A DNA stretch of 64,000 nt from a virus. Positions 33,866 to 60,998 of the stretch are shown here, piece by piece. The translations under genes and the position numbers were made by a program. The notes beneath the pieces are model-generated. The model worked only from the letters and a program-made list of their open reading frames with translations, had not been told where the DNA came from and did no database searches. Numbering within the stretch: position 1 is the stretch's first letter; each line of letters begins with the position of its first letter. The stretch covers positions 1 to 64,000 of the IMG/VR virus record IMGVR_UViG_3300042937_001707; one strand, 5' to 3'.

Positions 33866-34096
33866 ATGTTAGTAAAAACTGAGGAAGGAAACTTTATTAG
33901 GGATACAGAATCTATGGCGCTTCTTAATACTGATAGAAGCGCCAGAGAAGAATATTTCATGAAAGCGAAAATGTTACATATACAAAAGACAGAAATTGCT
34001 AATATAAATAATGAGATAGATTCGTTAAAAAACGACATAGGTGATATTAAATCTATGCTAATTCAATTAATATCGGATAAAACTAATGGCAAATAA
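33866..34096 (+). CDS. Small conserved coiled-coil protein
   Basis: RD..S.A.LNT and EI..LK.DI.DIK.ML motifs, typical just after the large structural gene. Confidence 0.7.
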   Translation: MLVKTEEGNFIRDTESMALLNTDRSAREEYFMKAKMLHIQKTEIANINNEIDSLKNDIGDIKSMLIQLISDKTNGK

Positions 34097-37000
34097 TATA
34101 ACCAATATCTATTTCTCTAATACTTTCGGTGATTTAGTAAGAACCGCAAATAACCTAGTAAACGCTTGGCAATATTTGGGGTTTTATGATTGGGATAAAC
34201 CTTCTGGAACTTTTTCTATATCAAGTTCTGGAACTGGGTTTCTTTCCAATACGATATCAGTATTTTCTAGAGAAACTAGGGTAGAAGGTGTTGGCAGTAG
34301 TTTATACGTCCAAAATAATGCTGAAGTGGGGAAAACTCTATCTCTCACAGATAGAGCGAATAACGTAACGTTGTATTCGAACGGAACTTCAATATTTTCT
34401 GGTGGATATCAAAATTATGCTTCTTACTTAACCGGAATTGGTTATGAAAATGTTAACAATAGTTACGGTATAGTTACTCTTGCTAAATCTCTATTTGCCA
34501 ATAGCGTAGATATTCTAGAAACAGCCAATGTAAATTTAATACAAGCAAACAATCAAATAATTTATTACAATTTATCTGGGAATACTGCACAATTTTCTGC
34601 GAACGTTACAGTTGGAAATTTGGTAAGTAATAATTTTATATATGCTGCAAATAATATTTCTACTAATAGAAATTTATTTGTGTCTGTAAATTCTCATGTT
34701 ATAGGTTTATCTTATACCGATAGATTGCAGGCAAATACTTCTGCAAATACTAGATATCTTTCTGTAACTGATGACGCCTTTGTAGATTACTTGCAAGCGA
34801 ATACAAATTTACAAACAGGGGTTGCTGTTGCAAATACGAGAGTCGTTACTGGTATTGTTCAAGCGAATAATACTGTTATTGCTAATACAGTTACTGCTAA
34901 CTCAATAGTTACTTCGCCAACATTACATGGTAGTAGTAACGTATTCAGCGGATATGTACAAGCTAATACCAGAATCGTTACTGGTATTGTTCAAGCAAAT
35001 AATACCGTTATTGCTAATACCGTTTCCGCCAACTCTTTGGTTACTACTCCAACGTTGCATGGTAGCAGTAACGTATTCACCGATTATGTTCAAGCTAATA
35101 CGAGAGTTGTTACAGGTATAGTTCAAGCTAATACTAACATATTTACTGCAACAATCTCTGCTAATAGTTCTATAGTTACTCCTACAGTTCAAGCTTCTTC
35201 GAACGTTTATACAGGATTTCTTAAAGCAAATAATTTAATTGTTACTGATGTTATTGAATCTCAATCTAGAGTTATAACAGATACTGCTTTAGCTAATACT
35301 AGAATAATTACAGCGACTTTACAATCTAATAATTCTATACTATCAAACGACATTTTAGCTAACACTAGAGTAGTTACTGGTATTGTTCAAGCGAACACCC
35401 ACATATATACCGACTACGCTCAAGCTAACACTAGAGTAGTTACTGGTATTGTTCAAGCTAATACTAACGTAATAACTAATGATGTTTTAGCAAATACTAG
35501 AGTTGTTGCAGGATTCGTTCAAGCAAACAATACCGTAATATCTAATACTATTTCTGCTAATACTGTTGTTACTTCTCCTACTTTACATGGTAGTAGTAAT
35601 GTATTTTCTGGATATGTTCAGGCTAATACTAGAGTTGTAACAGGTATTGTTCAGGCAAATAATATAGTTCATTCTAATACTGTTTCTGCTAATACTGTTG
35701 TTACTTCTCCTACTTTACATGGTAGTAGTAATGTATTCTCTGGATATATTCAGGCTAATACTAGAGTTGTCACTGAAACTGTTCAATCTAATACTAATGT
35801 AATAACTAATGATGTTTTAGCAAATACTAGAGTTGTCACTGAAACTGTTCAATCTAATACTAATGTAATAACTAATGATGTTTTAGCAAATACTAGAGTT
35901 GTGACAGGTATTGTCCAAGCTAATACTAATGTAATAACTAATGATGTTTTAGCAAATACTAGAGTTGTGACAGGTATTGTCCAAGCTAATACTAGAGTTG
36001 TCACTGAAACTGTTCAATCTAATACTAATGTAATAACTAATACTGTTTCAGCTAATTCATTAGTTACTTCTCCTACTTTACACGGTAGTAGTAACGTATT
36101 TACTGCGATTTTGCAAGCAAATAGTGCAGCAAACACTCAAAACCTATCAGTAACTCAGAGAATATTTACAAATGATTTTATATCTAATACTAACATTTTA
36201 GTAGTAAATAATGCAAATACTACCAATTTATACGCATCAAATCTAGTTCAAGCTAATAGTGTAGGATATCTAGATAACAGCCAAAATCCATCTGTATATA
36301 ATGTATATTCAAGAGAAGCACTATTCAATAATGCTTCGATAGTTTCAAACATGGTTGTTGGAGGAGACTTAAAAGTTTTAGGGGCTACTCAGTATGATGG
36401 TAAATCAATAAGATTAAGTGCTAACAGCCCTTCTTGGTGGACCAACACCATTCCTGCAGAACTGATTGTTAATAGAAAATTAGATGAGGCAAATGGTATA
36501 TGGTATTCTGCAAACTCTGACGCAGCAATATCTTGGTCCGATCTATCTTTAAGATGGAGAGCAGTCGATGTTCCTAATTCTACCGCCAACAGTAAAATTT
36601 ATACTAATTTATTGCTAGAGTTAGATATTGCTGATAATCTAAATGAAACTAGTTCCGTAAGAGTTCCTTCTTCTAGAGTACATTCTCTAACAAGAACACA
36701 CGCAAATTCTGCATTCTTAAATTCTAATTCTGCTTATACACATGCAAATTCTGTTTATACACACGCAAATTCAGCAATAACTATAGGGACAACGCCAGTA
36801 TATTTAAATAGAACTAATACAGTTTTTGGTGGTATATCAACATTGTCGGTAACAGGAACAACATTATCTAACTTTGTTGTTGCAAACACTAATGTAATTT
36901 CTCCAATAGTTGTTTCAAACAGCTTACAAGCAAACAATTTTGCTAATACCCAAAATCTTTCTGTAACCCAAACAATATTTACTAGAGATTTTCGAGCAAA

Positions 37001-42772: not shown

Positions 42773-43777
42773 GTGGCGAACACAGTAATTCAATTAAAGA
42801 AATCTATAGTACCTGGAAATGTTCCTAGTAGTTTAGAAAGCGGCGAAATAGCGATTAATACCGCTGACGGTATTTTATTCTATAAAGATCCTTCTAATGT
42901 TATAAGAACCGTAAGAACAGATACCACAACAAACGCATATTCTGTTCTAAATGTAAATTCTTCATTATTAATTGCAACATCCAATTCTGATATTTTATCT
43001 ATAGACTCTACGGGAGCAATAACATTAACTCCAGATTCTGTTAATGATAAATTTACTATTGGAGTAAAATCCGGAACAGTTTTTGAAGAGGGTGTTGTTC
43101 AATTATACGATGGAGTTGATTCGAATTCTATTGTGTTAGTAGCAACAGCAAACGCATTAAACGCTGTCTATAACTTAGCAAATTTAGCATTTAACAGTTC
43201 TGGATCTGGTCCTACATCAACAAACTTAGCGTATCAAGAATTCACAGCCGCAAATAATCAAACAGAATTTTCCATTACAAATGGATATAATATAGGTAAA
43301 ATTAAAGTATTTGTAAATGGTGTACTTTTAAATTCTTCCGACTATACGGCAACAAATGGAACATCTATAATATTATCGTCTCCAGCACCTTTAGGTGACG
43401 ACGTTTCAATACAAAAATGGTATAACGATGTAAATGTTGCAAATTCTTATAGTTTAATATATGGAAATATTGATTCGAATAATATAATAACTACGACAAA
43501 TAGCGCAAATCAAGTATTGGATTTATTTTCAACCGCGTTATATAGATCCGTGAAATATCAAATACAAGTCACAAGTTCGACAAGTTATCAAATAAGTGAA
43601 TTATTGTTGATTCATGATGGAACCACTTCTTATATTACAGAATATGGTTTAATTACAACAAATGGCGTATTAATGAGTTATGATACAGACGTTTCCGGAG
43701 GATCTGTGAGATTATTGATATCTCCTACCAACAATAGCAATAGTATTAAATTCACAAAAACCTCAATTGTAGTATAA
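42773..43777 (+). CDS. Virion fibre-connector protein
   Basis: GTG start; IQLKKS...P..L..GEIAIN N-domain; VFVNGV.L...DY module; C-terminal YRS.KY.IQ...IHDG....EYG domain. Confidence 0.65.
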   Translation: MANTVIQLKKSIVPGNVPSSLESGEIAINTADGILFYKDPSNVIRTVRTDTTTNAYSVLNVNSSLLIATSNSDILSIDSTGAITLTPDSVNDKFTIGVKSGTVFEEGVVQLYDGVDSNSIVLVATANALNAVYNLANLAFNSSGSGPTSTNLAYQEFTAANNQTEFSITNGYNIGKIKVFVNGVLLNSSDYTATNGTSIILSSPAPLGDDVSIQKWYNDVNVANSYSLIYGNIDSNNIITTTNSANQVLDLFSTALYRSVKYQIQVTSSTSYQISELLLIHDGTTSYITEYGLITTNGVLMSYDTDVSGGSVRLLISPTNNSNSIKFTKTSIVV

Positions 43778-44588: not shown

Positions 44589-47500
44589 ATGTCAACAAAA
44601 AAGTTTACCACTAGGCATGGTATAGATGCCAATTATCAAGATATTGTTTCTGCCAATAATGTATCAACCAATACATTAACAGCTCTTGTTTCTACGGGAA
44701 CTCCACCTCTAACCGTCTCATCAACTACAAAAGTTGAAAATCTCAACGTAGATTTACTCGATGGTTATAATACTGCAACATCAAACGCTGCAAATACTGT
44801 AGTCGTAAGAGATGCAAATTCATTTATTTCTTTAAATGGATTGTATATGAACTCTTCCGAGGGATTGAAAAATATCTCGTGGAATAATACATATTCAACA
44901 TATGATATGGAACTACTAAATGGAGTTACATTACAAGTAGGACAAGAATCTCATATCTATGGTAGAGCAACAGAAACCATCCAAAATGGTAAAATTGTTA
45001 TGTTCGCTGGCGCTCAAGGAGATGGTCTTCTATTAAGATTAGCAAATACACAAGTTACTGGATTTGAACCTAGATGGATTGTTGGTGTTGCCACCCAAAC
45101 TATTCCTCAAAATAATTGGGGATATGTAACTTGGTTTGGTAAGGTTAATGACGTTGACACGTACAATTATTCTCTTGGAGATATTTTATATCTAGATAAT
45201 AACAATCCTGGAGCATTTTCTAATACAAGACCTACTGCCCCAGATTATGCTATAACATTAGCAGCAGTTGTTAGAGTTTCTAATTCTCCATCTTCTAATA
45301 ATGGCATTTTGATGGTTCGTCCAGATTTTGGATATGAATTATCAGAAGCACGTGACGTTAAGATTACTAATATTTCAGCAAACGATGTTATTATTTGGAG
45401 TGCGAATAATAGATGGGAGAATAAACCTCAATCGAATTTAGATGTTGGCAATTCCGATAAATTAGATGGCGAACATGGTAGTTATTATACAGGGTATACA
45501 GATACTGCTAATACAAACAATTTAATTTACACCAATAATGTAATAAATTCTAATGTAACATTATTACAGGGAATTAATACTACCCAAAATACTAATATTA
45601 GCAATTTAACATCATGGTTAAGTTCTAATGTAAGTTTGATTGCTGGAGTTGATAATACCCAAAATACAAATATATTATCTATACAGGAAGTAGATAATAC
45701 TCAGAATACAAGATTGACTGTTATTGAAGGTGTTGATGTTACTCAGAACACCAATATTAGCAATTTAACATCATGGTTAAGTTCTAATGTAAGTTTGATT
45801 GCTGGAGTTGATAATACCCAAAATACAAGATTGACTGTTATTGAAGGTGTTGATGTTACTCAAAACACATTTACTCAAGCAGCATTTACTCATGCTAATG
45901 CCGCATTCTTATCTTCTAATACTAAATTTAGTTCTTCTGGTGGGACAATCACAGGAGATGTTGTTATTACTGGTAATGTTGCGGTTCAAGGCACTACAAC
46001 CACTCTTGATGTTGATACTATTGCTGTAGAAGACAAGAACATAACTTTAGCAAATGTTGCTTCTCCTACGAATATTACTGCTGATGGCGGTGGTATTACT
46101 GTTAGAGGAACAACAGATAAAACTTGGAATTGGATTAACGCAACTTCTTCGTGGACTTCTAGCGAAAATATTGACATTGCTTCTGGTAAAACCTATAAAA
46201 TTAACGGAATAGATGTACTAACATCCACAACAATATCTAATATACAAGGAGTAGATAATACTCAAAATACAAGATTGACTGTCATTGAAGGAACTGATGT
46301 TACCCAGAACACAAATATTACTAATTTAACAAGTTGGTTAAGTTCTAATAATACTCTGCAAACAAATATAAACGCGACTCAGAATACTTCTATTACTGCA
46401 GCATTTATCCAAGCAAACTCTGCTTATAACCAAGCAAATACCACAAACACAAACGCTTCTAATGCTTCGAATTTGACTACAGGAACAATTCCGGGCGATA
46501 GAGGTGTTACCGCTGGTTCCACAACTCCATCGTTTATTGAATATAATGGAACTACGAAAACTGCTGGTCAGTTTGATGGTGGTTCAACTGCACCAACAAA
46601 TACTACTAGATTAAATTACGATGGTAATTTATATGCCACTACGTTCTATGGAGAAGGAACTGGTTTAACTGGAACTGCGTCAAATTTAACTGCCAATGTC
46701 GCTAATTTTGAAGTAATAACCAACGCTACTTCTGGAACATATTATCCACAATTGGTTTCTGCTACTTCCGGAACTCTTGCTGGATATACTAATAATGCGT
46801 TTGCGTTTGATGTTGCAAATGGTAGGTTTGGGATTGCGACAACAACACCAACAACAAAGTTACACATAACCGAAAGCGCCGGTGCTTGTGTACCAATTCT
46901 AACATTAGACAATTCTTCTGGTTGGGCTACTGGCATCAATTTTAAAGTCAATTATTCTGGTTATACGACTTCAAGAATAGTATACGATTTTTATGGTTCA
47001 GAATTCGCCGGATTGTCTCACGGAATGAATTATGTTTCTGGTAGACCTTCAAATTCCAATCATTGGTTTAGAGACTCAGCAAATAATATCCAATTAGCAA
47101 TTTTAAATTCGGGTAATGTAGTAATTGGTTCTAATACTACAAATTACAAATTTGAAGTTGTGGGGACTGCTAAAGCAAATACATTAACTCTAACTGCAAA
47201 TACTGCTTCTACTAATACTACAACAGGAACATTAATTGTAACTGGTGGCGTTGGTATTTCGGGTGCATTAAATGCTACCACAAAATCGTTCGATATCGTT
47301 CATCCTTCCGATCCAAATAAACGATTAAGATATGGTTCGTTGGAATCTCCATATCACGGAGTAAGATTAACAGGTAAAGGAAAAGTTATTAACGGAAAAG
47401 GAGTAGTAACCTTACCATATTACTTTAGAGATTTGGTTCATGAAGAAGATGTTAATATTCAATTAACAAATATTAAACACGGTAAAGTATTATGGGTAGA

Positions 47501-47636
47501 AGACATTAACATTAAAGAAAATCGGTTTACAGTGGGTATTGACGAAACTACTAGCATTTTTACTAAAGAATACGAATTCTTTTGGGATATAACGGCAGAA
47601 AGAAAAGATGTACCTTCATTAATAGTAGAGGAATAA
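44589..47636 (+). CDS. Tail fibre with TQNT coiled-coil repeats and C-terminal chaperone-like domain
   Basis: 14-aa VDNTQNTRLTVIEG repeats; KSF.I.HP....RL.YG.LE.P..GV..TG...LP.Y C-terminus. Confidence 0.7.
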   Translation: MSTKKFTTRHGIDANYQDIVSANNVSTNTLTALVSTGTPPLTVSSTTKVENLNVDLLDGYNTATSNAANTVVVRDANSFISLNGLYMNSSEGLKNISWNNTYSTYDMELLNGVTLQVGQESHIYGRATETIQNGKIVMFAGAQGDGLLLRLANTQVTGFEPRWIVGVATQTIPQNNWGYVTWFGKVNDVDTYNYSLGDILYLDNNNPGAFSNTRPTAPDYAITLAAVVRVSNSPSSNNGILMVRPDFGYELSEARDVKITNISANDVIIWSANNRWENKPQSNLDVGNSDKLDGEHGSYYTGYTDTANTNNLIYTNNVINSNVTLLQGINTTQNTNISNLTSWLSSNVSLIAGVDNTQNTNILSIQEVDNTQNTRLTVIEGVDVTQNTNISNLTSWLSSNVSLIAGVDNTQNTRLTVIEGVDVTQNTFTQAAFTHANAAFLSSNTKFSSSGGTITGDVVITGNVAVQGTTTTLDVDTIAVEDKNITLANVASPTNITADGGGITVRGTTDKTWNWINATSSWTSSENIDIASGKTYKINGIDVLTSTTISNIQGVDNTQNTRLTVIEGTDVTQNTNITNLTSWLSSNNTLQTNINATQNTSITAAFIQANSAYNQANTTNTNASNASNLTTGTIPGDRGVTAGSTTPSFIEYNGTTKTAGQFDGGSTAPTNTTRLNYDGNLYATTFYGEGTGLTGTASNLTANVANFEVITNATSGTYYPQLVSATSGTLAGYTNNAFAFDVANGRFGIATTTPTTKLHITESAGACVPILTLDNSSGWATGINFKVNYSGYTTSRIVYDFYGSEFAGLSHGMNYVSGRPSNSNHWFRDSANNIQLAILNSGNVVIGSNTTNYKFEVVGTAKANTLTLTANTASTNTTTGTLIVTGGVGISGALNATTKSFDIVHPSDPNKRLRYGSLESPYHGVRLTGKGKVINGKGVVTLPYYFRDLVHEEDVNIQLTNIKHGKVLWVEDINIKENRFTVGIDETTSIFTKEYEFFWDITAERKDVPSLIVEE

Positions 47637-47637
47637 T

Positions 47638-50007
47638 ATGGCAACTGCATATAATAGTAAACTTGTTACTGATAATTTGGTATTATGTATAGATGCTGCT
47701 AATCCAAAAAGTTATCCAGGAACTGGAAATAATTGGTTTAATTTAGTAAAAGGCAATCGTTCAGAAACTATATCCGGAGAAACCACTACAAATTTAATGT
47801 ATTCTTCCGGAACTTTTGTTGGGTCTATTGGAACATTAACGGGTTCTTTTTCAGTGACAACTGTAGAGGCAAATAGTAAATATCGCGTTCAGTGTAACAC
47901 TAGTGGGCTAATTAGAATATCAATTCCTAATGGTTTGTTAGTAAACAACCAAACATATACATTATCATACAAATATAAAGTCATTTCTGGATTAACCAAC
48001 TTTTTAATAAACGATTTTTGTGATGTTAATGTTGGCGACAGATTAATTATAGATACAGGCGATTATATTTTTGCTTCAGCAACGGCGAAAAGAATTACTT
48101 ATGATTCGACATATAGATTTTTTGATACACCAACATTTCAAGTTGGTGATATTATAGATATTTGGGATATACAAGTAGAACAAAAAACGTATCCGACTGT
48201 TTTTGTAAATGGTATAAGATCCTCTGCAACATCAAATCAAATTTTAACTGGCGGAAATCAAAATTCAGATTTAATCAATGGTCCATCATACCAATCTCAA
48301 GGGGTAATTGTGTTCGATGGCGTTGATGATTACGTTAAACAAAACCCTATGGCGTTTAAATCAGGAAGTGGGTGGACTCTATCGTGTTGGATAAGTCCTG
48401 TATTTAATTCCACTAAAATAGGAGCTTCTGTATTTTATGCTGTTGAAGGTAATTATCTAGGATACCCTTGTTCTGTCCCACTAACAACTCAAACGGATAC
48501 TACATATATAACACCTAAAAGCTCAATAGGTAGCACTTTTTATATTTGTTCTAACTATGTAACCAATTTTGTTGGTTCAGAAAGAATCCCTAAAATTTTT
48601 AAGATGAATTCTATTTTCACAGCGGTCGATCAAGGATTTAATACAGGTTCTGTAGGATACCTATCCACTCCAGTTCACATAACAGCATCTACATATTATT
48701 CTGGGAAAATATATGTATGCGAAAACCTTAGCCAATATAGTAAATATGGAAAAATAGGATTCAAACGATATAATTCTGATGGATCGTTAGATACTGGTTT
48801 CGGAACATCTACTTCTGGATTTAATTTTTCTACGGCATTTTCCGCAGAAGACAGTTCAGGAAATATTTATGTTGTTGGCTCCTTTACTTCTTATAACGGA
48901 ACCGCAGCAAACCGAATTATTAAATTAAACACTGACGGTTCAATAGATACTTCTTTTGTTTATGGTACTGGGTTTAATAATGTAGTAACAGCAATTTACA
49001 TAGATCCAATTAATGGAGGCATATATGTTATAGGAAATTTTACTTCTTATAACGGAACCGCAGCAAACCGAATTATTAAATTAACCTCTACTGGGTCGAT
49101 AGATGCTTCTTTTGTTTATGGTACTGGGTTTAATGATCAAGTCCTTTGTATAGAGTTTGACGAAAACGGAGATTTATATGTTGGGGGAGGGTTCACTACA
49201 TATAATGGAACGGCAGTAAATCGCATGGTTAAATTAACCTCTACTGGGTCGATAGATGCTTCTTTTGTTTATGGTACTGGGTTTAATGGTGTTGTTAGAT
49301 CAATATCATACAGTTATGACTTTTCATGGTTATATGTTGGGGGAGCGTTTACTACATATAACGGAACCGCAGCAAACCGAATAATTACATTAAACACTGA
49401 CGGGTCAATAGAAACTTCTTTTGTTTATGGTACTGGGTTTGACGGTGCTGTGCTTTCTATATTAGCAGATAGTTCAGGTTTGTTATATGTTGGTGGCTCA
49501 TTCACTACATATCAAGGCAGTGCTGTAAGTAGATTCGTAGGATTAGACATATATGATGGGACTTTTGTAACAGACATATTTGGTCTTACTTCTGATTTTG
49601 AATCTTGTGTAAATCTATCTACAAATTTTTATAATATCAGATATTTAGATGGGTTTGTATTTGCGTGGGTTAACAAAACACCTGTAGACTTAACTATTAT
49701 CGGAGCATCGCAAACAATTTTAACAGCCAATGAATTATATGACATTTTTGACGGGAATACCACTATAAATTTAGTGGAATCTATGGATACTAATTCTACC
49801 TATAAAGCATATTTAAACGGACAATTAGTATGTGAAATTCCAAATGTAGAAAATTCTGGTATTCTTTTATATAATTTGTTTAATGACATTTCAACGTCAT
49901 CTAAATTTCAAGGGAAAGCTTCTAATATTTCTGTATACAGCAAAGCATTATCCGCCACAGAAATTCAACAAAACTTCAACGCTACAAGGAGCAGATATGG
50001 AATATAA
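47638..50007 (+). CDS. LamG/concanavalin-like protein with inserted delta-60 beta-propeller repeats
   Basis: LVL..DAAN..SY.G N-terminus, FDGVDDY, 4-5 copies of YV.G.FT.YNG....RI.KL...GSID.SF..GTGF, ALS..EIQQNFNA C-terminus. Confidence 0.75.
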   Translation: MATAYNSKLVTDNLVLCIDAANPKSYPGTGNNWFNLVKGNRSETISGETTTNLMYSSGTFVGSIGTLTGSFSVTTVEANSKYRVQCNTSGLIRISIPNGLLVNNQTYTLSYKYKVISGLTNFLINDFCDVNVGDRLIIDTGDYIFASATAKRITYDSTYRFFDTPTFQVGDIIDIWDIQVEQKTYPTVFVNGIRSSATSNQILTGGNQNSDLINGPSYQSQGVIVFDGVDDYVKQNPMAFKSGSGWTLSCWISPVFNSTKIGASVFYAVEGNYLGYPCSVPLTTQTDTTYITPKSSIGSTFYICSNYVTNFVGSERIPKIFKMNSIFTAVDQGFNTGSVGYLSTPVHITASTYYSGKIYVCENLSQYSKYGKIGFKRYNSDGSLDTGFGTSTSGFNFSTAFSAEDSSGNIYVVGSFTSYNGTAANRIIKLNTDGSIDTSFVYGTGFNNVVTAIYIDPINGGIYVIGNFTSYNGTAANRIIKLTSTGSIDASFVYGTGFNDQVLCIEFDENGDLYVGGGFTTYNGTAVNRMVKLTSTGSIDASFVYGTGFNGVVRSISYSYDFSWLYVGGAFTTYNGTAANRIITLNTDGSIETSFVYGTGFDGAVLSILADSSGLLYVGGSFTTYQGSAVSRFVGLDIYDGTFVTDIFGLTSDFESCVNLSTNFYNIRYLDGFVFAWVNKTPVDLTIIGASQTILTANELYDIFDGNTTINLVESMDTNSTYKAYLNGQLVCEIPNVENSGILLYNLFNDISTSSKFQGKASNISVYSKALSATEIQQNFNATRSRYGI

Positions 50008-50251: not shown

Positions 50252-50989
50252 GTGAGTTTGGGTCACGGAGCAAGTATTGTTACTAATGGATTAGTTTTAT
50301 GTTTAGATGCTGCTAATCCAAAAAGTTATCCTGGATCAGGTGCTGTTTGGTATGATTTGAGTGGAAATGGTAATCACGCTTCTTTAGTAAATGGACCAGT
50401 TTATTCTACAGAAAATAATGGCAAATTTGTATTAGACGGAATAAATGATTATGTAGAAACGATTAATCCTCTAAATTTATCAACAACCAATGCGGTAACA
50501 GTTTTATTTTCAGTAAAAGTATTATCCTATGGGACTTCTCCAAAAGTTCTATATGAATTAGGTCCAAATTTTAACAGTTATACCGATTGTTTTGTAGCAT
50601 CATTTTCTGATAATTCTGTTGGAGCGAATTATGATATTTTTGCTAGTGTTAGAGGAAATGTTGGATATAATATAGGAGTATATTCTAAAACTTTATTAAA
50701 CGATTCCAATTGGCATTCTAATATTATAATACACGACACTTCACAAACTTCCAAAGAAAATCTTATATACAGCAACGGTGTTATAAAAGACGAAATATCT
50801 AACCCCCTTTCTGGATATGCTAATAATACTAATAATTTCGGTAACAGAAAATTTTATATAGGTTGTAGGGGAGGAGCTAGTTTGTTTGGCAATATTGAAA
50901 TATCGAGTGTTATGGCGTATAACAGAGCATTATCCGCAGCAGAAATTCAACAAAATTTTAACGCTTCTCGCAATCGCTTCGGGATATAA
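50252..50989 (+). CDS. LamG/concanavalin-like lectin domain protein
   Basis: IVT.GLVL.LDAAN..SYPGSG..W.DLSGN, DG.NDY and YNRALS..EI.QNFNA motifs. Confidence 0.75.
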   Translation: MSLGHGASIVTNGLVLCLDAANPKSYPGSGAVWYDLSGNGNHASLVNGPVYSTENNGKFVLDGINDYVETINPLNLSTTNAVTVLFSVKVLSYGTSPKVLYELGPNFNSYTDCFVASFSDNSVGANYDIFASVRGNVGYNIGVYSKTLLNDSNWHSNIIIHDTSQTSKENLIYSNGVIKDEISNPLSGYANNTNNFGNRKFYIGCRGGASLFGNIEISSVMAYNRALSAAEIQQNFNASRNRFGI

Positions 50990-50992: not shown

Positions 50993-51022
50993 GTTAAATA
51001 ACAACTCCTTAGAGAATACCAA

Positions 51023-51643
51023 ATGGCATTAAACGAACAAAATATAGTAATTCAACCTAATGTTGGTATAGCAAATACTAACCCAAAAATTACGTTTTCC
51101 GCAGCAGACGCATCAACAAATGCTAAGAATATTGTTCTTAATGTATACCCAACTTCAAACGGAACACTTTCTTTTGAAGGTAACGCCGGACAATTATTCT
51201 CTATCACAGACTCAATGTCTGGAACAATATTCTCTGTTAATGATATTTCTGGTATTCCTTCTATAGAAGTTTTAGACACTGGATTAGTAAAACTTGCCCA
51301 ATATTCTGGCGACGTTCAAATCGGACCTTCTACAGTTTTAATTTCGGAAAATTATACTACCACAACCACAAATCAAATTACACTAGACAGCTTTCCCGCA
51401 GCAACATATAGAACAGCAACTTATGAAGTGCAAATGACTTCATCTACAAATTATCATACAATAACACTAAAACTAATACATAACGGCACAACAGTTTATC
51501 TCGCTCAATATGGAGAAATATTCACAAATGCTTCTCTAGGAACATTTGATGCTACAATTACTTCCGGTAATATGAATTTATTATTTACTCCAACCAATGC
51601 TACTACCGTAGTAAAATTAACAAGACAACTAATCTTGGTATAA
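51023..51643 (+). CDS. Virion fibre-connector protein
   Basis: LSFEG.AGQLFS.TD...G.IFSVND.SG.P motif; C-terminal YR.A.Y.VQ...IHNG....QYG domain shared with 42773..43777. Confidence 0.65.
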   Translation: MALNEQNIVIQPNVGIANTNPKITFSAADASTNAKNIVLNVYPTSNGTLSFEGNAGQLFSITDSMSGTIFSVNDISGIPSIEVLDTGLVKLAQYSGDVQIGPSTVLISENYTTTTTNQITLDSFPAATYRTATYEVQMTSSTNYHTITLKLIHNGTTVYLAQYGEIFTNASLGTFDATITSGNMNLLFTPTNATTVVKLTRQLILV

Positions 51644-51644
51644 A

Positions 51645-53333
51645 ATGGCAACAAATAAACCCTTTGAAATAAAAAACGGATTAATTGTTGGGGATACTCT
51701 TGTCGCAAATTCAACTGGTCATTGGGTAGGTCCATCAACAAATATAACCGGAGATCAAGGATTTCAAGGAAATATTGGGATAACTGGAAATGTTGGATTT
51801 ACTGGAATAGCAGGATTCCAAGGTAGACAAGGAGTACAAGGTTCTACTGGTCCTCAAGGCGTACAAGGTGCTTTGGGTGCTACTGGTAATATTGGAGTTC
51901 AGGGTGCTATCGGAATAGCAGGATTTCAAGGTAGGCAGGGCGTTCAAGGTTCTACTGGTCCTCAAGGCGTACAAGGCGTGGTTGGTGCTACTGGAAATGC
52001 TGGAGTTCAGGGCGCTATCGGAATATCAGGATTTCAAGGTAGACAAGGAATACAAGGTTCTACTGGTCCTCAAGGCGTTCAGGGAGCAGTTGGTGCTACT
52101 GGAAATAGTGGAATAGCAGGATTCCAAGGCAGACAAGGGTTTCAAGGCACACAAGGTCCACAGGGACCACAAGGAGTTCAGGGAGCAGTTGGTGCTACTG
52201 GTAATGCTGGTGTGCAAGGTGCTATTGGAATAGCAGGATTTCAAGGTAGACAAGGAATACAAGGTTCTACTGGACCACAAGGAGCACAAGGCGCTGTAGG
52301 TGCTACTGGTAATGTTGGTGTGCAAGGTGCTATTGGAATAGCAGGATTTCAAGGCAGACAAGGGTTTCAAGGTTCTACTGGTCCACAAGGAGCACAAGGC
52401 GCTGTAGGTGCTACTGGTAATGCTGGAATAGCAGGATTTCAAGGAAGACAAGGATTCCAAGGCGCACAAGGACCACAAGGACCACAAGGCGTTCAAGGCG
52501 CTGTTGGTGCTACTGGTAATACTGGAGTTCAGGGTGCTATTGGAATAGCAGGATTCCAAGGTAGACAAGGAGTCCAAGGTCCACAGGGACCACAAGGTGT
52601 ACAAGGTGCTGTTGGCGCTACTGGACCGCAAGGAGTTCAAGGGACAGTTGGAATAGCAGGATTTCAAGGTAGACAAGGAGTCCAAGGTCCACAGGGACCA
52701 CAAGGCGTACAGGGAGCAGTTGGCGCCACTGGTCCTCAAGGGGTTGCTGGAATAGCAGGATTCCAAGGCAGACAAGGATTCCAAGGCGCACAAGGTCCGC
52801 AAGGAGCACAAGGAGCACAAGGCGCTGTAGGTGCTACTGGTCCTCAAGGAGTTGCTGGAATAGCAGGATTCCAAGGCAGACAAGGATTCCAAGGAGCAAA
52901 TTTAATAATTCCTGCCAATAATCTTAGTACATTAGGAGTAAATGCTGCACTTGGCGGAACTGGAGAAATACGAGCATCTGGAAATATCATAGCAGCATAC
53001 TCAGATCAAAGATTAAAGAAAAATATAAACAAAATTGAAAATTGTTTAGAAAAAGTATTAAGTATAAGTGGAATTTATTTTACTCAAAATAAGTTAGCAG
53101 AAAAGTTTGGATATAACGATTATAGTAAAAAAATAGGATTGATAGCACAGCAAATAAAACCTTTTGCTCCTGAAATAGTTAAACCTGCTCCTTTTGATAC
53201 GGATTCCGATGGAAATAGCATTTCTGGGGAAAATTACATAACAGTACAATATGAAAAATTAATTCCAATAATAGTAGAAGCTATAAAAGAACAACAAAAG
53301 CAAATTAAAGAACTTTTAACATTAAGAAACTAA
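51645..53333 (+). CDS. Collagen-like fibre protein 1 with S74 chaperone domain
   Basis: 128 uninterrupted Gly-X-Y triplets (51750-52901); AYSDQRLK...IGLIAQ...APFD...YEKL.P...EAIKE. Confidence 0.9.
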
Positions 53334-53337
53334 TCAG

Positions 53338-55047
53338 ATGGCAGAACAATCTAAACTAATAATAAAAAATGGATTAGTTGTTGGAAATACTTCAGTTATT
53401 TCCAACAATTCTGTTTGGATTGCTTCTACAACGAACATAAAAGGTCCGCAAGGACCACAAGGATTTCAAGGCGTTCAAGGATTCCAAGGACCACAAGGAG
53501 CACAAGGACCACAAGGGTCTCAAGGAATTGCGGGAGTTACAGGACCACAAGGCATACAAGGGGTTGTTGGTAGACAAGGGTTCCAAGGTCCACAAGGATT
53601 TCAAGGAGCGCAAGGACCACAGGGAGCACAAGGTGCTGTCGGTGCTACTGGACCCCAAGGAGTTCAAGGCGCTGCAAGTTCTATTGCAGGGTTCCAAGGT
53701 CCACAAGGGTTTCAAGGCGCTCAAGGTCCACAAGGTGCACAAGGTGCTGTCGGTGCTACTGGTCCACAAGGAGTTCAAGGAGCAATCGGCGTAACAGGAG
53801 TCCAAGGAGTCCAAGGTCCACAGGGACCACAAGGTGCACAAGGTGCAGTTGGTGCTACTGGACCACATGGAGTTCAAGGAGCAGTTGGCATATCTGGATT
53901 CCAAGGTAGACAAGGAGTCCAAGGAGCGCAAGGACCACAGGGAGCACAAGGTGCTGTCGGTGCTACTGGACCCCAAGGAGTTCAAGGCGCTGCAAGTTCT
54001 ATTGCAGGATTTCAAGGCAGACAAGGGTTTCAAGGCGCACAAGGTCCACAGGGCGCACAAGGAGCAGTTGGTATTACTGGTCCTCAAGGAGTTCAAGGAG
54101 CAATCGGCGTAACAGGAGTCCAAGGAGTCCAAGGTCCACAGGGACCACAAGGTGCACAAGGTGCAGTTGGCGTTACTGGACCACAAGGAGTTCAAGGTGC
54201 TGCAAGTTCTATTGCAGGATTTCAAGGCAGACAAGGGTTTCAAGGCGCACAAGGTCCACAGGGCGCACAAGGAGCAGTTGGCGTTACTGGACCACAAGGA
54301 GTTCAAGGCGCTGCAAGTTCTATTGCAGGATTTCAAGGCAGACAAGGAGTCCAAGGTCCACAAGGTCCACAGGGCGCACAAGGAGCAGTTGGCGTTACTG
54401 GACCACAAGGAGTTCAAGGTGCTGCAAGTTCTATTGCAGGATTTCAAGGCAGACAAGGAGTCCAAGGTCCACAGGGACCACAAGGTGCACAAGGTGCAGT
54501 TGGCGTTACTGGACCACAAGGAGTTCAAGGAGCAGTTGGAATAGCAGGATTCCAAGGTAGACAAGGAGTCCAAGGTCCACAAGGTCCGCAGGGCGTTCAA
54601 GGGATATCTAATGTTTTGCAAACATCAGTAACTGCGTTAGGAGTTGGAACCCCAGCAGGACCAACAGGAGAAATAAGAGCAACCGGAAACATAACTTCGT
54701 ATTATTCTGACATAAGGTTAAAAGATAATATAGAATCTATAAAAAATGCTAGTGAAAAATTATATCAATTAAATGGAATTTTTTATAAACAAAATAAGTT
54801 TGCAGAAACCTTTGGATATAAAGATTATAGCAAACAAATAGGAGTTATAGCACAAGAAGTTCAAAAAATTATACCAGAAGCTGTTGCATTAGCACCATTT
54901 GATATTGATGAAAATCACAATAGCATCACAGGTTTAAATTTATTAACGGTTAATTATGAAAAATTAATTCCATTAATAATAGAAACTATAAAAGAACAAC
55001 AAAAAGAAATAGATTTATTAATAAAAGAAATAAAATATGGCAGCTAA
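53338..55047 (+). CDS. Collagen-like fibre protein 2 with S74 chaperone domain
   Basis: Gly-X-Y domain 53443-54609 with 5 GAASSIAG interruptions; YYSDIRLK motif. Confidence 0.9.
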
Positions 55048-56719
55048 TAATAATTTCGTTGTAAAAAATGGCATATCTATAAATCTAAATGAAATAATTT
55101 CATCAGAAGGCATTTGGACTGGTCCCGCTTCAAGCTATTCCGGATCACAAGGACCACAAGGAGCACAAGGACCACAAGGCGCTCAGGGTGCTGTGGGTGC
55201 TGCTGGTCCACAAGGAGTTCAAGGAGTAGAAGGATTCCAAGGTCCACAAGGATTTCAAGGCGCTCAAGGTCCACAAGGTCCACAGGGAGCACAAGGCGCA
55301 GTTGGTGCTACTGGTCCACAAGGCATACAAGGGGTGGCAGGGTTCCAAGGTCCACAAGGATTCCAAGGCGCTCAAGGTCCACAAGGTCCACAAGGCGCTC
55401 AAGGCGCAGTTGGTGCTATTGGACCACAGGGCATTCAAGGGGTAGCAGGATTTCAAGGTCCACAAGGATTTCAAGGCGCTCAAGGCGCTCAGGGTGCTGT
55501 CGGTGCTACTGGTCCTCAAGGAGTACAAGGTGCTGCAAGTTCGATTGCGGGGTTCCAAGGTCCACAAGGATTCCAAGGCGCTCAAGGTCAACAAGGACCA
55601 CAAGGCGCTCAAGGCGCAGTTGGTGCTATTGGACCACAGGGCATTCAAGGGGTAGCAGGATTTCAAGGTCCACAAGGATTTCAAGGAGCGCAAGGTCCAC
55701 AAGGTCCACAAGGCGCTCAAGGGGCAGTTGGCGTTACCGGACCACAAGGAGTTCAAGGGGTGGCAGGGTTCCAAGGTCCACAAGGATTTCAAGGTGCTCA
55801 AGGCGCTCAGGGTGCTGTCGGTGCTACTGGTCCTCAAGGAGTACAAGGTGCTGCAAGTTCGATTGCGGGGTTCCAAGGTAGACAAGGATTTCAAGGCGCT
55901 CAAGGTCCACAAGGACCACAAGGCGCTCAAGGCGCTGTAGGTGCTACTGGTCCTCAAGGAGTTGCTGGAATAGCAGGATTCCAAGGTAGACAAGGATTCC
56001 AAGGCGCTCAAGGTCCACAGGGCGCTCAAGGAGCACAAGGCGCTGTAGGTGCTACTGGTCCTCAAGGAGTTGCTGGAATAGCAGGATTCCAAGGTAGGCA
56101 AGGATTCCAAGGCGCTCAAGGTCCACAGGGAGCACAGGGGGCAGTTGGTGTTACTGGACCGCAAGGAGTTCAAGGAGCGGCTAGTTCAATTGCAGGATTT
56201 CAAGGCAGACAAGGAGTTCAAGGTCCACAGGGTCCACAGGGAGCACAGGGGGCAGTTGGTGCTACTGGTCCTCAAGGAGTACAAGGAGCGGCTAGCAATG
56301 TGGTAACTGAAGTTACAGCACTAGGAGTTAATACTATAGCAGGAACAACAGGAGAAATAAGAGCAACTGGACAAATTACTGCATATTATTCTGATAAAAG
56401 ATTAAAACAAGTTTTAGGAAATGTTGACAATTGTTTAGAAAAGATAAGTAAAATACATGGTGTATATTACGAACAAAACGAATTAGCTAATTCATTTGGA
56501 TATAAAGACTCTTCAAGACAAATAGGATTTATAGCACAAGAAATACAAGAAGTGCTACCAGAAGCAGTAAAAATTGCCCCTTTTGATTCTAATAAATATG
56601 GACATAGTATTTCTGGAGAAAAATATTTAACCGTACTATACTCAAAAATAGTACCGTTATTAATAGAAGCATTAAAAGAACAGAAAATACAGATAGATGA
56701 ACTAAAAACAAAAAATTGA
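55037..56719 (+). CDS. Collagen-like fibre protein 3 with S74 chaperone domain
   Basis: Gly-X-Y domain 55142-56293 with 3 interruptions; YYSDKRLK motif. Confidence 0.9.
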
Positions 56720-56727
56720 GGAATATT

Positions 56728-57300
56728 ATGAAAGGTGAATGGTGTTATTTTAAATCATATTTTGATAAAGATACTTGCGAAAAAATAATCAGAGATGTTC
56801 AATCCATTCCATCACAAGATGCTCTTGTTGGTAATATCGATGCTTTCGCTGATTATAAAAATAGAAGAAGTAAAATAAAATTTATTCATAGTTCAAATTG
56901 GAGATTTGCGTATATATTTGATGCATTATGGAAAGCAGCAATAAGTGCAAATAATGATTTTTTTGACATACACATTACTAGATTAAATTTCATTCAATTC
57001 GCAGAATATAGTCACGAAGACCAAGGAGAATATAAAAACCATCACGACGTTTTTTGGTTAAACAATGATCCCGTTTATCATAGAAAACTTTCTTGTGTAA
57101 TCCAACTATCAGACTCTACTGAATATGAAGGTGGAGATTTTGAGTTAGTAGATGTATCAACATATCCTGATGCTTCTGAGATTAGGCAACAAGGATCGAC
57201 TATATTTTTTCCTTCATTTTTTACACATAGAGCAAATCCAGTAATAAGAGGAACTAGATATAGTATTGCTGCATGGTTTGAAGGTCCGAAATGGAGATAA
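56728..57300 (+). CDS. 2OG-Fe(II) oxygenase (prolyl-hydroxylase/PKHD-like)
   Basis: HHD...RKLS..IQLS...YEGG...FPSF..H...PV..GTRYS...W; start moved to ATG 56728 behind GAGGA. Confidence 0.88.
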   Translation: MKGEWCYFKSYFDKDTCEKIIRDVQSIPSQDALVGNIDAFADYKNRRSKIKFIHSSNWRFAYIFDALWKAAISANNDFFDIHITRLNFIQFAEYSHEDQGEYKNHHDVFWLNNDPVYHRKLSCVIQLSDSTEYEGGDFELVDVSTYPDASEIRQQGSTIFFPSFFTHRANPVIRGTRYSIAAWFEGPKWR

Positions 57301-57301
57301 T

Positions 57302-58024
57302 ATGCACCCAACCATACATTATAATGAACCGTTTGATTACTACATTATAGATGATTTTTTAGAACCATCTATCGCAAAAAAGATATCAGAAGAATTTATC
57401 CCATTTGAATCCACACATTGGTTCGATTATAATAATCCATTAGAAATAAAAAAAACTTTAAACAATTGGTATCATTTTCCAGAAACCACTTATAAGTTTT
57501 TTTCTTATCTAAATTCAAAAGAATTCGTAGAAATAATTCAAAATATAACAAAAACAAATAATCTATATACTGATATCGGATTACATGGTGCTGGCTGGCA
57601 CATTCATGGTAACGGTGGGAAATTGAATGTACATCTAGATTATTCAATTCACCCAAAATTAAAATTACAAAGAAAATATAATTTTATAATATATCTATCA
57701 CAGGAATGGAATCCAAAATGGGGAGGTAATTTAGAATTTTGGTCACACGATTTTCTAAACAAAAAACCAAAAGAAAAAATTGCCCAAGTGGATTGTATAT
57801 TCAATAGAGCAGTAATTTTTGACACTACCAAAAATTCTTGGCATGGGTTTAACGATCCCATAACTTGCCCAAATAATACATATAGAAAAAGTATTGCTTG
57901 TTATTACCTAACTGACCCAGAAGAAATCACAGAGGAACGATACAGAGCATTATATTCAGCATCAAAATCTCAAGAGAATGATAGAAACATTGAACAATTG
58001 ATTAAAAATAGAAGTAAACTATGA
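57302..58024 (+). CDS. 2OG-Fe(II) oxygenase (proline-hydroxylase-like)
   Basis: L.VHLD, IYL...W...WGG.LE.W, FNRAVIF, SWHG and RKS motifs. Confidence 0.85.
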   Translation: MHPTIHYNEPFDYYIIDDFLEPSIAKKISEEFIPFESTHWFDYNNPLEIKKTLNNWYHFPETTYKFFSYLNSKEFVEIIQNITKTNNLYTDIGLHGAGWHIHGNGGKLNVHLDYSIHPKLKLQRKYNFIIYLSQEWNPKWGGNLEFWSHDFLNKKPKEKIAQVDCIFNRAVIFDTTKNSWHGFNDPITCPNNTYRKSIACYYLTDPEEITEERYRALYSASKSQENDRNIEQLIKNRSKL

Positions 58025-59739
58025 ATAAAAAATGTAAAATTGTTATGATTACCATGTTTAAGAATGAAGCAAGATCCATAGAAAGAATGCTAAATTCTTG
58101 TTTACCTTTTGTAGATTACTATGTTCTTCAGAACAACGGATCGACAGACGGTTCCGATCAAATAGTAAAAGATTTCTTGATTAATAACGAGTTATCCGGA
58201 ACTTTATATGATGTAGAAGAAGGTTGGGTTGGATTTGGATGGAATAGAGATCATTTAATTCAAACATGTCAAGATATTGATCATGGATGTGATTGGATTT
58301 TAAAGATGGATTGCGACGAAGTTCTAGAAATTGACAGCAATTTTAATTGGGAGTTGTTAAGTGATAAATCTACCCAAGCATTTCATATTCCTGCAGTAAG
58401 TGGAACTTGTGTATATTATAGAGCATGGATGTGGAACGCAAACCTTCCTTGGAGATTTAATCACGATACTTGCCACGAAACAATATATTGCGAAATTCCG
58501 GAAATAGATAAAAACTTTGTGTGTAAAGACTTACCAAAATCTTTTAGACAAGTAGGATATAACGAAGGACAAAGTTGGTCGGTTCCTACAAAATTTATTT
58601 CAGACTCTTTAATCTTAGAAGAAAAAATGATTAAAGAAAACACAATACATTCCGATATATACCATTTTTGGTATATAGGCAAAAGTTATGCAGATGCTTA
58701 TCCATCAACAGCATTTCCTCTGGGAAAAACGCAGCAGAAAGAATATGCAAGAAGATGTATTTACTATTTTACTGAATATTTAAATTTAATACATGATTTT
58801 GAAAATACGAAAAAAGCAAAATTTATAGACGAAACTTCTTACATGTCACTAATTTTAATGGCAGAGGCATATATATTCTTAAATAAAGAAGACAACGCAA
58901 TAGAGTGTTATATTCTTGCAGAATCTTTTGCTCCAAAAAGAAATGATCATCTTTTTGGATTAGCAAGAATTTATAAACGTTTGAAGCAATATGAAGAAAT
59001 GTTACAAATCACTTCTGTAATGATTAACCCAGAAAGAAAAAACCCTTTCCCAGAATATTGTAATTTTATAGATTCTTCTTTATATATCAATGAAGAAAAT
59101 AATGTCGTAGAAGAACTTCATAATTTTGCATTATCACATAATACAAAAGAACAACATATTCCATTACCATTTTATATAAATTTAAATAAAGATAAAAATT
59201 TATTTGTAGTTGATAATTTTTATACCAATCCAGATGATGTCAGAGATTTTGCATTAAATTTTGTTGAATATAAAGAAGATTTAAATTGGTATAAAGGGTT
59301 AAGATCTACAGTAACATATAGACCAGATGGTATAAAAGAAGCATTTGAAGAAATAATAGGAAAAAAGATTTATAATTTCGAAGAACACGGATTTAATGGA
59401 GTTTTTCAGATAACAAGCGCAAAAGATCCCCAAGTATATCATTATGATGCACAAAAATGGGCAGCAATGATATATTTAACCCCAAATTCTCCGCTAGAAA
59501 GCGGAACAAGAACCCATAGATCCAAATTAAACGGAACAAAACACGCATCAGAACCAAACGTTGATTTTGCATTTAATGGCAATTTCTATGACAGCACTAA
59601 ATTTGAAATTATTGATAATGTGGGGAATATATACAATAGATTAGTAATAATGGATGCTCAAAATATCCATTCTGCTGGTCCATATTTTGGCTCTGCTATT
59701 CATGATAGTAGATTAACTCATTTATTTTTCTTCGATTAA
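58021..59739 (+). CDS. GT2 glycosyltransferase + TPR-like region + C-terminal 2OG-Fe(II) dioxygenase-like domain fusion
   Basis: M.KNE...I.R.L.S, GSTDG, F...R, DCDE and HE motifs; helical middle; VVDNFY.NPD.VR, HYD, YNRL, H and RL..LFFFD. Confidence 0.8.
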   Translation: MNKKCKIVMITMFKNEARSIERMLNSCLPFVDYYVLQNNGSTDGSDQIVKDFLINNELSGTLYDVEEGWVGFGWNRDHLIQTCQDIDHGCDWILKMDCDEVLEIDSNFNWELLSDKSTQAFHIPAVSGTCVYYRAWMWNANLPWRFNHDTCHETIYCEIPEIDKNFVCKDLPKSFRQVGYNEGQSWSVPTKFISDSLILEEKMIKENTIHSDIYHFWYIGKSYADAYPSTAFPLGKTQQKEYARRCIYYFTEYLNLIHDFENTKKAKFIDETSYMSLILMAEAYIFLNKEDNAIECYILAESFAPKRNDHLFGLARIYKRLKQYEEMLQITSVMINPERKNPFPEYCNFIDSSLYINEENNVVEELHNFALSHNTKEQHIPLPFYINLNKDKNLFVVDNFYTNPDDVRDFALNFVEYKEDLNWYKGLRSTVTYRPDGIKEAFEEIIGKKIYNFEEHGFNGVFQITSAKDPQVYHYDAQKWAAMIYLTPNSPLESGTRTHRSKLNGTKHASEPNVDFAFNGNFYDSTKFEIIDNVGNIYNRLVIMDAQNIHSAGPYFGSAIHDSRLTHLFFFD

Positions 59740-59741
59740 TT

Positions 59742-60998
59742 ATGAAATTTAGCATTATAACCCCAGAACATAATAAAAATAATCCGTATTTGATGGAATT
59801 GTTCGAATCCATAGAAAACCAAACTTATGAAAATTGGGAATGGGTAATATTATTAAATAATGGTTGCGAATTCGAAGACCTTCCAGAACAAATTTTATAC
59901 CATGATAAAGTAAATGTATACAAACTAGAAGAAACCAATTCAAATATTGGATTTATAAAAAATAAAGCATTTCATCTTGGGTCCGGAGATGTTTTAGTAG
60001 AAGTTGATCATGATGATATATTAATAAAAAATTGTTTAGAAAAATTATACGAAGTATATCAAGATGAAAACATGGGATTCGTATATAGCGATAATGCCGT
60101 CTTACATATGACCGATGAATTTTCCCCATATGACGCAAATCAAGGGTGGGAATATTCTATTTATAATTGGAAAGGTCGAGATTTAATTTCTATGAAAAGT
60201 TTCGAACCATCTTCTCAAAGTTTAGGTTATATTTGGTATGCTCCAGATCATGTCAGATCTTGGAGGTCTAATGTCTATAAAGAAATTGGAGGACACAATC
60301 CAGAATTATCAGTATGCGATGATCATGAATTATGTATTAGAACATATCTACACACTAAAATGAAAAGAATTCCGGAAGTTCTTTATATCTATAGAATTAC
60401 CGGGGAAAATACTTGGTTGGAAAGAAATCAAGAAATACAACAAAAAACAATAGAATTATTCAATAATTATATTCAACTTTTAGCAGAAAAAGATTGCGAA
60501 GAAAAAGGATTATTGAAAATTGATTTGGGAGGGGGTTTAAATCCGTATAAAGATTATAAAACCGTTGATATCACAGAATCTGCGGATTTTCAATACGATT
60601 TAAATGAAGGGATACCGTTACCAGATAATAGCGTAGGAGTTATCAATGCCAGTCATATATTAGAACATTTAAAAGATCCTATCAAATCTATGAGCGAAAT
60701 TCATAGGGTGTTATGTCATGGTGGATGGGCTTTTATAGAAATTCCAAGCACGGATGGAAGAGGAGCATTCCAAGACCCCACACATGTAAGTTTCTGGAAC
60801 GAAAATAGTTTTTTATATTATACCGATAAATATCTTGCTAATTTTATAAATAATAAATATATAAGATTTCAAGAATATTATAAACAAACATATTTTCCAA
60901 ATGAATGGTTACAACAAATAAATGTTTGTGTTACTTCCGCATATTTAACAGTTATTAAAGACGATTCTATCCGATACCCCGGATTTTTAAAAATATAA
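59742..60998 (+). CDS. GT2 glycosyltransferase + class I SAM methyltransferase fusion
   Basis: FSIITP, SI..QTY.NWEW, EVDHDD, VYSD, GG....DD.EL; DLGGG, DL..GIP..DNSV, H.LEH, EI.RVL..GG and AFQDPTH. Confidence 0.85.
   Translation: MKFSIITPEHNKNNPYLMELFESIENQTYENWEWVILLNNGCEFEDLPEQILYHDKVNVYKLEETNSNIGFIKNKAFHLGSGDVLVEVDHDDILIKNCLEKLYEVYQDENMGFVYSDNAVLHMTDEFSPYDANQGWEYSIYNWKGRDLISMKSFEPSSQSLGYIWYAPDHVRSWRSNVYKEIGGHNPELSVCDDHELCIRTYLHTKMKRIPEVLYIYRITGENTWLERNQEIQQKTIELFNNYIQLLAEKDCEEKGLLKIDLGGGLNPYKDYKTVDITESADFQYDLNEGIPLPDNSVGVINASHILEHLKDPIKSMSEIHRVLCHGGWAFIEIPSTDGRGAFQDPTHVSFWNENSFLYYTDKYLANFINNKYIRFQEYYKQTYFPNEWLQQINVCVTSAYLTVIKDDSIRYPGFLKI

Follow-up and report, generated by a model that had tools for sequence, protein, structure and literature searches.

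The window, a 64,000-nt stretch of viral DNA (positions 1 to 64,000 of IMG/VR record IMGVR_UViG_3300042937_001707), carries three adjacent collagen genes whose products, chains A, B and C, are closely matched in the length of their Gly-X-Y domains. Judging from the sequences of this trio and of its relatives, we put at roughly 0.55 the probability that the three chains wind together as a mixed 1:1:1 collagen triple helix, a tail fibre of ~110 nm. The evidence that carries this reading is a length lock: in related phages, the collagen lengths of the paralogues in one array co-vary over roughly 125 to 710 residues, a range of ~five-fold, and agree to a few residues, often to one or two. A set of three homotrimeric fibres of equal reach is the strongest competing explanation and is weighed below.

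Three collagen genes in tandem

All three genes lie on the + strand and are tightly packed. Chain A (562 amino acids, aa) is encoded at 51645..53333, chain B (569 aa) at 53338..55047, starting 4 nt past the A stop, and chain C (560 aa) at 55037..56719, overlapping the end of B by 11 nt. The chains share one plan, in which a 35-residue N-domain is followed by collagen repeats from Gly36, a linker of ~33 residues and a Peptidase_S74 chaperone. In A, the N-domain occupies 51645-51749, the Gly-X-Y repeats 51750-52901, and the linker with the S74 domain 52902-53330, with the putative cleavage Ser453 at 53001. The corresponding parts of B are the N-domain at 53338-53442, the collagen at 53443-54609 and Ser457 at 54706; those of C are the N-domain at 55037-55141, the collagen at 55142-56293 and Ser452 at 56390.

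The collagen domain of A (residues 36-419, 384 aa) consists of 128 triplets and has zero breaks. That of B (residues 36-424, 389 aa) has 123 triplets and five 4-residue breaks, equal to 128 triplet-equivalents plus 5 residues, and that of C (residues 36-419, 384 aa) has 124 triplets and three 4-residue breaks, equal to 127 triplet-equivalents. The breaks in B and C are of one type, SSIA placed between GAA and the next G, and fall at triplets 26, 61, 84, 96 and 108 in B and at triplets 44, 79 and 115 in C. An earlier note on this DNA had given collagen spans of 384, 389 and 384 aa, their coordinates and other counts, all of which are correct in the sequence; the three breaks of chain C were absent from its account. 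The repeats have an unusual composition, with Pro at X only, mostly Gln at Y, no Lys and a charge of nearly nil.

Pfam assigns the repeats to Collagen (PF01391) with E values of 8e-62 (A), 5.5e-53 (B) and 1e-57 (C), and the C-termini to Peptidase_S74 (PF13884) with 38.3, 53.5 and 48.9 bits, respectively, against a cut-off of 22; a genome search agrees. With the motifs YSDQRLK in A, YSDIRLK in B and YSDKRLK in C, which contain the Ser nucleophile and a Lys five residues downstream, each chain does have the S74 chaperone with SDxRLK that the earlier note had described. Its statement that the paralogues differ in repeat order and have diverged in their end domains is likewise borne out, with identities of 23-43% between N-domains and 52-54% between C-domains. 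The start at Gly36 is common to all three chains as claimed, but it is not specific to the trio: an alignment of 17 family members, taken from the window and six loci (seven phages in all), has Gly throughout column 36.

Breaks rich in Ser, Thr and Ala interrupt the repeats at 53676-54440 (B) and 55537-56195 (C) of the window and in the relatives L178, L180, L188, L157 and L007. In some chains they are strictly periodic, recurring every 6 triplets in gene 3 of L188 and every 12 in gene 2 of L178. Such breaks could be hinges or modification sites.

Collagen lengths co-vary across related phages

Scanning IMG/VR with a C-domain profile and a degenerate DNA pattern for the N-domain yielded ~30 non-redundant loci with the architecture of the trio. 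Arrays bounded on both sides hold three copies (eight arrays) or two (two arrays), never one or four. The collagen span varies ~seven-fold across these phages, from 78 to 608 aa. Within arrays, its coefficient of variation is 1.9%, compared with 36% after permutation (p < 5e-5), and the intraclass correlation coefficient is 0.998 (19 arrays, 46 genes). The earlier suggestion that the length match reflects selection is supported by these values; the check proposed with it, whether relatives carry several genes of co-varying length, gave a strongly positive result, with copy numbers of three or two.

A stricter measure is the distance between two anchors, the conserved Trp27 and the cleavage Ser, with each break taken as the nearest whole number of triplets; this counting rule is our own and was fixed ahead of the comparison. 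The median within-array difference in anchor-to-anchor length is 4 residues, compared with 228 after permutation (p < 5e-5; 18 non-redundant arrays), a precision that depends on counting breaks in whole triplets. In four arrays the chains agree to 1 residue. The lengths are 539/540/539 in L178, 503/504/503 in L022, 599/600/599 in L188, 649/647/648 in L195, 616/615 in L034 and 339/339 in L122; the chains of the window measure 426/425/422.

Triplet-equivalents are tighter than raw residue counts in 13 of the 14 arrays where the two differ. In L188, where one chain has 27 breaks and another zero, raw spans of 592/591/616 become 590/591/590 in triplet-equivalents. The linker in turn offsets the triplet count, as in L188, where 188/187/186 triplets are accompanied by 29/33/35 linker residues. 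A match in triplet units combined with a compensating linker is a better fit to strands that measure one another within a single helix than to fibres merely held to ~110 nm.

Coupled change is also seen over a short timescale. L026 and L188, whose C-domains are 87-92% identical, differ by one insertion or deletion (indel) per orthologous collagen, of +18/+36/+18 aa, all near the C-end.

Our purity filter (triplets making up at least 85% of the span) drops sub-families whose collagen is only one section of a larger fibre protein, and those filtered out, such as the MANQNNF... and MASNQDF... types, have collagens of unmatched length. Sister sub-families (L097, L111+L137, L121+L152, L148, L154+L114, L161, L165 and L175+L177) have N-domains that are near-identical within a genome, for example MASNQDFIVKNGL, and only 40-60 triplets within far larger fibre proteins; the collagen lengths of their paralogues are unmatched. 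In L163 (3162-5087), the third gene of a short-collagen array (~29 triplets) has a frame with ~386 extra residues before the usual N-domain, which may stem from a fusion or belong to a separate upstream gene that shares the frame and went unrecognised.

Ancient paralogues without aligned repeats

In a maximum-likelihood tree, the C-domains fall into three well-supported clades (100/97, 100/98 and 99/95), represented in the window by chain A (clade Z), chain B (clade Y) and chain C (clade X). The cleavage motif SD.RLK is present in 34 of 35 family members of these clades, and the exception, SDERMK, retains Ser and Lys. Of nine complete three-gene arrays, eight contain exactly one member per clade; in the ninth, L155, the first gene lies outside the three clades on a long branch. 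The two-gene arrays branch apart from these, in a clade of their own that has two classes. Three clades with one of each per array argue that the collagen paralogues predate the differences in length.

The repeats themselves share little beyond their number. At shift 0, identity between paralogues at the X and Y positions equals background (|z| <=1.6) in 26 of 27 pairs, with non-Gly identities of 29-81%; paralogous arrays thus lack positional homology, and their equal length is not an inherited alignment. The longest exact DNA match between the window paralogues is 68 nt, and the comparison of the window's collagen genes returned no high-scoring segment pairs (HSPs) of >=60 nt at >=90% identity. 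The old clades, the lack of positional homology, the absence of HSPs indicative of copying and the coupled indels of L026 and L188 together point to selection on equal axial length with near-residue precision.

A predicted gp9-like socket upstream of the array

The gene directly upstream of chain A (51023..51643, + strand) encodes a 206-aa protein, hereafter the socket protein, for which PHROGs and Pfam gave no match. Its C-terminal ~100 aa make up a conserved domain; at least 12 related loci have it at the end of the gene that directly precedes the collagens. In an AlphaFold2 model, the C-terminal 125 aa form a β-sandwich (predicted local distance difference test, pLDDT, 82). Its best match in the PDB is the C-terminal domain of T4 gp9 (1qex_A; Foldseek E 3.9e-5, TM 0.60), followed by phage baseplate and tailspike domains; comparison with gp9 residues 157-284 gave a VIA Z of 13.5 and a root mean square deviation of 8.3 Å over 118 aligned residues. 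The socket domain is thus predicted to have the fold of the gp9 C-domain, the domain that T4 long tail fibres join coaxially (PMC3004832).

We modelled three socket domains together with three chain-A N-termini. The complex reached an ipSAE of 0.87, whereas the best of three controls reached 0.00; in the calibration, 58 of the 80 solved complexes attain this score, as do 2 of the 110 mismatched pairs. Our model differs from the calibration in relying on our own alignments and on copies. At least 95% of the contacts agree between runs, and the pLDDT of the partner is at least 78. Collagen residues 1-11 and 14 pack on the socket segment TVYLAQYGEI plus DAT in the modelled interface, which coincides with the most conserved residues of both partners. 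The model supports docking of the collagen N-termini on the gp9-like socket and fits a homotrimeric plug and a mixed plug equally well. There is one socket gene per three plug genes.

In relatives, the socket domain ends proteins of ~200 to >1,400 aa, and because some of these proteins are so long the domain may cap the end of a proximal fibre instead of being part of the baseplate. A second gp9-like socket copy is found in the window at the end of a 334-aa protein (42773-43777; E 6e-19 to the 206-aa protein). Two genes past it, a 1,015-aa protein (44589-47636) has a related N-terminus (…KKFTTRHGI…), and the two resemble another pair of plug and socket, here with a fibre made from a single gene.

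A mixed helix and its alternatives

From these data we infer co-assembly of the chains, its 1:1:1 stoichiometry, cleavage and docking, which would proceed as follows. Three C-terminal S74 domains, one from each ancient class, would associate and start folding, and the helix would then zip in the N-terminal direction. The S74 domains would cleave themselves at the Ser of SDxRLK, and the N-terminal strands (residues 1-11) would plug coaxially into the trimeric gp9-like C-domain of the 206-aa socket protein. Because both ends of the helix would be held in three-fold domains, each strand would have to span an equal axial distance, and a break in one strand would be absorbed locally, by bulging or stretching, and count as whole triplets. 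A mixed helix held at both ends would explain the equality in register units, the linker offset, the coupled indels, the presence of one member of each class in nearly every three-gene array and the single socket gene. To a fuller version of this proposal we give even odds: a natural heterotrimeric phage collagen in which co-evolved, self-cleaving S74 classes choose the chains, and Ser/Thr-rich bulges are either tolerated or modified by the adjacent oxygenases and glycosyltransferases.

Several observations weigh against a mixed helix. The earlier note had described the three chains as matched in register; this did not hold: with breaks at non-corresponding places, any two window chains keep a common Gly phase along just 17-43% of their length. 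Across arrays, the Gly phase is common to paralogue chains over a median of 37% of the length. Of 281 comparisons, only 4 placed a register-shifting break within 4 aa of one in the other chain, where ~13 are expected by chance, and circular-shift tests showed no excess of coincident breaks; the breaks of paralogues are not co-located. Some arrays place a strand with 20-27 breaks beside an unbroken strand. In a homotrimer all breaks would be in phase, whereas a mixed helix would need many single-strand bulges. Furthermore, the class consensus sequences of the C-domains show no complementary core residues (big/small or charge) that might select unlike partners. Two arrays depart from the lock, L005 (187/133) and L026 (581/564/581), and the two-gene arrays imply that 1:1:1 is not general and that a 2:1 composition would be needed there. 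Finally, all array lengths derive from short-read assemblies, and among Logan contigs from four lake runs (51000-57300) none bridges a collagen array.

Two further signals were considered and set aside. Avoidance of coincident breaks gave P ~0.01-0.02 in a first test; with the near-duplicate L026 dropped and anchoring at either end, P ranged from 0.02 to 0.87. A stagger deduced from linker offsets is small (Z ~ Y+1) and is not needed by a homotrimer either.

A possible but less probable arrangement is that the genes encode three separate homotrimeric fibres, A3, B3 and C3; separate fibres of one length were also an option in the earlier note. Diverged S74 domains would keep their assembly orthogonal, the same plug would serve sockets that are shared or contested, and equal reach would be selected so that any mixture on the virion works. 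The solved S74 relatives that we found (MYRF 7dc3 and phage S16 gp37 6f45) have all been deposited as three same-sequence chains, and the characterised prokaryotic collagens are homotrimers. Breaks specific to one paralogue, which often recur at regular intervals in one chain while another has none, are natural in such fibres; near-identical N-domains of paralogues, present in some genomes, are expected of plugs for one socket; and the exceptions L005 and L026 suggest that mismatch is tolerated. Equal reach, however, cannot need a precision of 1-2 residues over 300-650 residues. Separate homotrimers also give no account of the match in triplet-equivalents or of the linker offset, and provide no obvious cause for the coordinated +18/+36/+18 indels. 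The heterotrimer proposed in the earlier note keeps its footing in the co-variation of lengths across relatives, whereas its grounds in Gly36 and matched register are weak.

It is improbable that the match has no assembly meaning and arose by gene conversion, recent duplication or repeat collapse in metagenome assembly: repeat motifs are shared among paralogues of one genome, the near-identical N-domains in some genomes indicate that conversion occurs, N-domain junction types are re-assorted against C-domain classes, indicating recombination within genes, and short contigs never bridge an array, but paralogous arrays lack positional homology, the window genes lack HSPs of the kind sought above, the C-domain classes predate the length differences, and assembly errors would break, not create, the equality seen in 16 of 18 arrays.

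Comparison with known fibres and collagens

Known S74 fibres (PF13884; the K1F endosialidase type, S16 gp37 6f45 and MYRF 7dc3) resemble the trio in having the domain, with S-D-x-R-L-K, at the end of a trimeric fibre protein within a tail-fibre module. In the trio, unlike these, S74 follows a long collagen rod, and since only ~33 residues separate the helix from the cleavage Ser, the mature tip would be tiny. The family of the trio also keeps three ancient S74 classes, one of each per array, whereas the solved examples that we found are all composed of same-sequence chains.

In animal heterotrimeric collagens (types I, IV and IX, for instance) and C1q, the three chains are encoded by neighbouring genes and a non-collagenous end domain makes the choice of chain. 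To our knowledge, mixed three-chain collagen has so far been documented only in animals. The trio is similar in its tandem separate genes, its equal triplet number and a globular domain at the C-terminus, where it could initiate trimer formation and choose the chains. It differs in that its S74 end domain is unrelated to gC1q or NC1, hydroxyproline chemistry is lacking and breaks are unaligned, and in that its co-assembly is a proposal.

Prokaryotic and phage collagen-like proteins (Scl, BclA, prophage tail-fibre collagens and PRD1 P5) form Gly-X-Y fibres without hydroxyproline and have trimerising flanks (PMC8968730), and a collagen-like fibre protein is present in a cyanomyophage (PMC1079782). 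Those that have been characterised are homotrimeric, in contrast to the length-locked trio of ancient paralogues in the window, of which we found no description in the literature searched. The predicted attachment site resembles the T4 gp9-gp34 joint in that the upstream protein ends in a β-sandwich with the gp9 C-domain fold and the model seats the fibre N-termini three-to-three; the similarity is at fold level only (~10-12% identity), and the fibre is a collagen, not a gp34-like β rod.

Should the strands co-assemble, they would form the first heterotrimeric collagen known to occur naturally in a virus or prokaryote, and a small self-removing domain would choose three different chains and set their register. 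Chain selection and register control are a current struggle in collagen engineering (PMC8968730). If the chains instead form separate homotrimers, the precision itself needs a new explanation. The relatives also provide a rare case in which repeat number is kept to single-residue precision across genes without aligned sequence, and thus a clean system for studying the coupled evolution of repeat arrays. The gp9-like socket and the N-terminal plug also suggest a route for fibre exchange in the host-recognition region of aquatic T4-like phages.

Genes conserved downstream of the array

The array belongs to a cassette whose gene order is kept in >10 loci: the socket-domain protein, two to three collagens, oxygenase A, oxygenase B, a protein with family 2 glycosyltransferase (GT2), TPR and DUF6445 domains, and a GT2-methyltransferase protein. 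In the window, the downstream genes are all on the + strand. Oxygenase A, a 2-oxoglutarate (2OG)-Fe(II) oxygenase by Pfam (PF13640; 56716..57300), directly follows the array, and its homologues (E 1e-61 to 1e-96) adjoin collagen genes in at least 15 related loci. It is followed by the 2OG-Fe(II) oxygenase B (PF13640/PF13661; 57266..58024), the GT2 + TPR + DUF6445 protein (58021..59739) and the GT2 + methyltransferase protein (59742..60998). The order of oxygenases and GT2 proteins after the collagens (56716-60998 in the window) recurs in L178, L180, L145+L170, L022, L026, L188, L032, L013 and L113. Any modification of the collagens would not be of the animal type, because Lys and Y-position Pro are absent from them.

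Genome context and occurrence

The virus record of the window comprises 78,984 bases and is judged about half complete. The window contains T4-type baseplate wedge genes, giant fibre genes and a gene for a 2,255-aa DUF4815 protein. Identity between the window's baseplate wedge protein and the counterparts in cyanomyophages and Pelagibacter phage HTVC008M is only ~38%. At least 77% of the window's sampled words are contained in 20 lake/freshwater metagenome runs from 20 studies (2016-2024). The wedge genes and this occurrence identify the source as an uncultured freshwater T4-like myovirus. The unique gene-to-gene junctions in 51000-57300 are identical, at 100% identity, in Logan contigs of four lake runs; together with the presence in 20 runs, this establishes the lineage as widespread and stable. 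Tblastn against cultured phages matched only the S74 part, at <=50% identity and with the collagen uncovered, and the N-domains alone gave nothing usable; these comparisons thus revealed no cultured carrier of the trio.

The variable fibre region that holds the collagen trio has been named the host recognition cluster in work on pelagimyophages (PMC7029224). A 1,955-aa fibre protein encoded at 34086-39953 has a C-terminal Peptidase_S74 domain (53.7 bits) and no collagen, and is the fourth S74 protein of the record. The genes at 47638-50007 and 50252-50989 encode a pair of proteins that have a motif in common at the N-terminus and a Laminin_G_3 (concanavalin-like) domain at the C-terminus; the longer protein (47638-50007) additionally has DUF5122 β-propeller repeats. 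Both probably add to the receptor-binding proteins of the fibre region.

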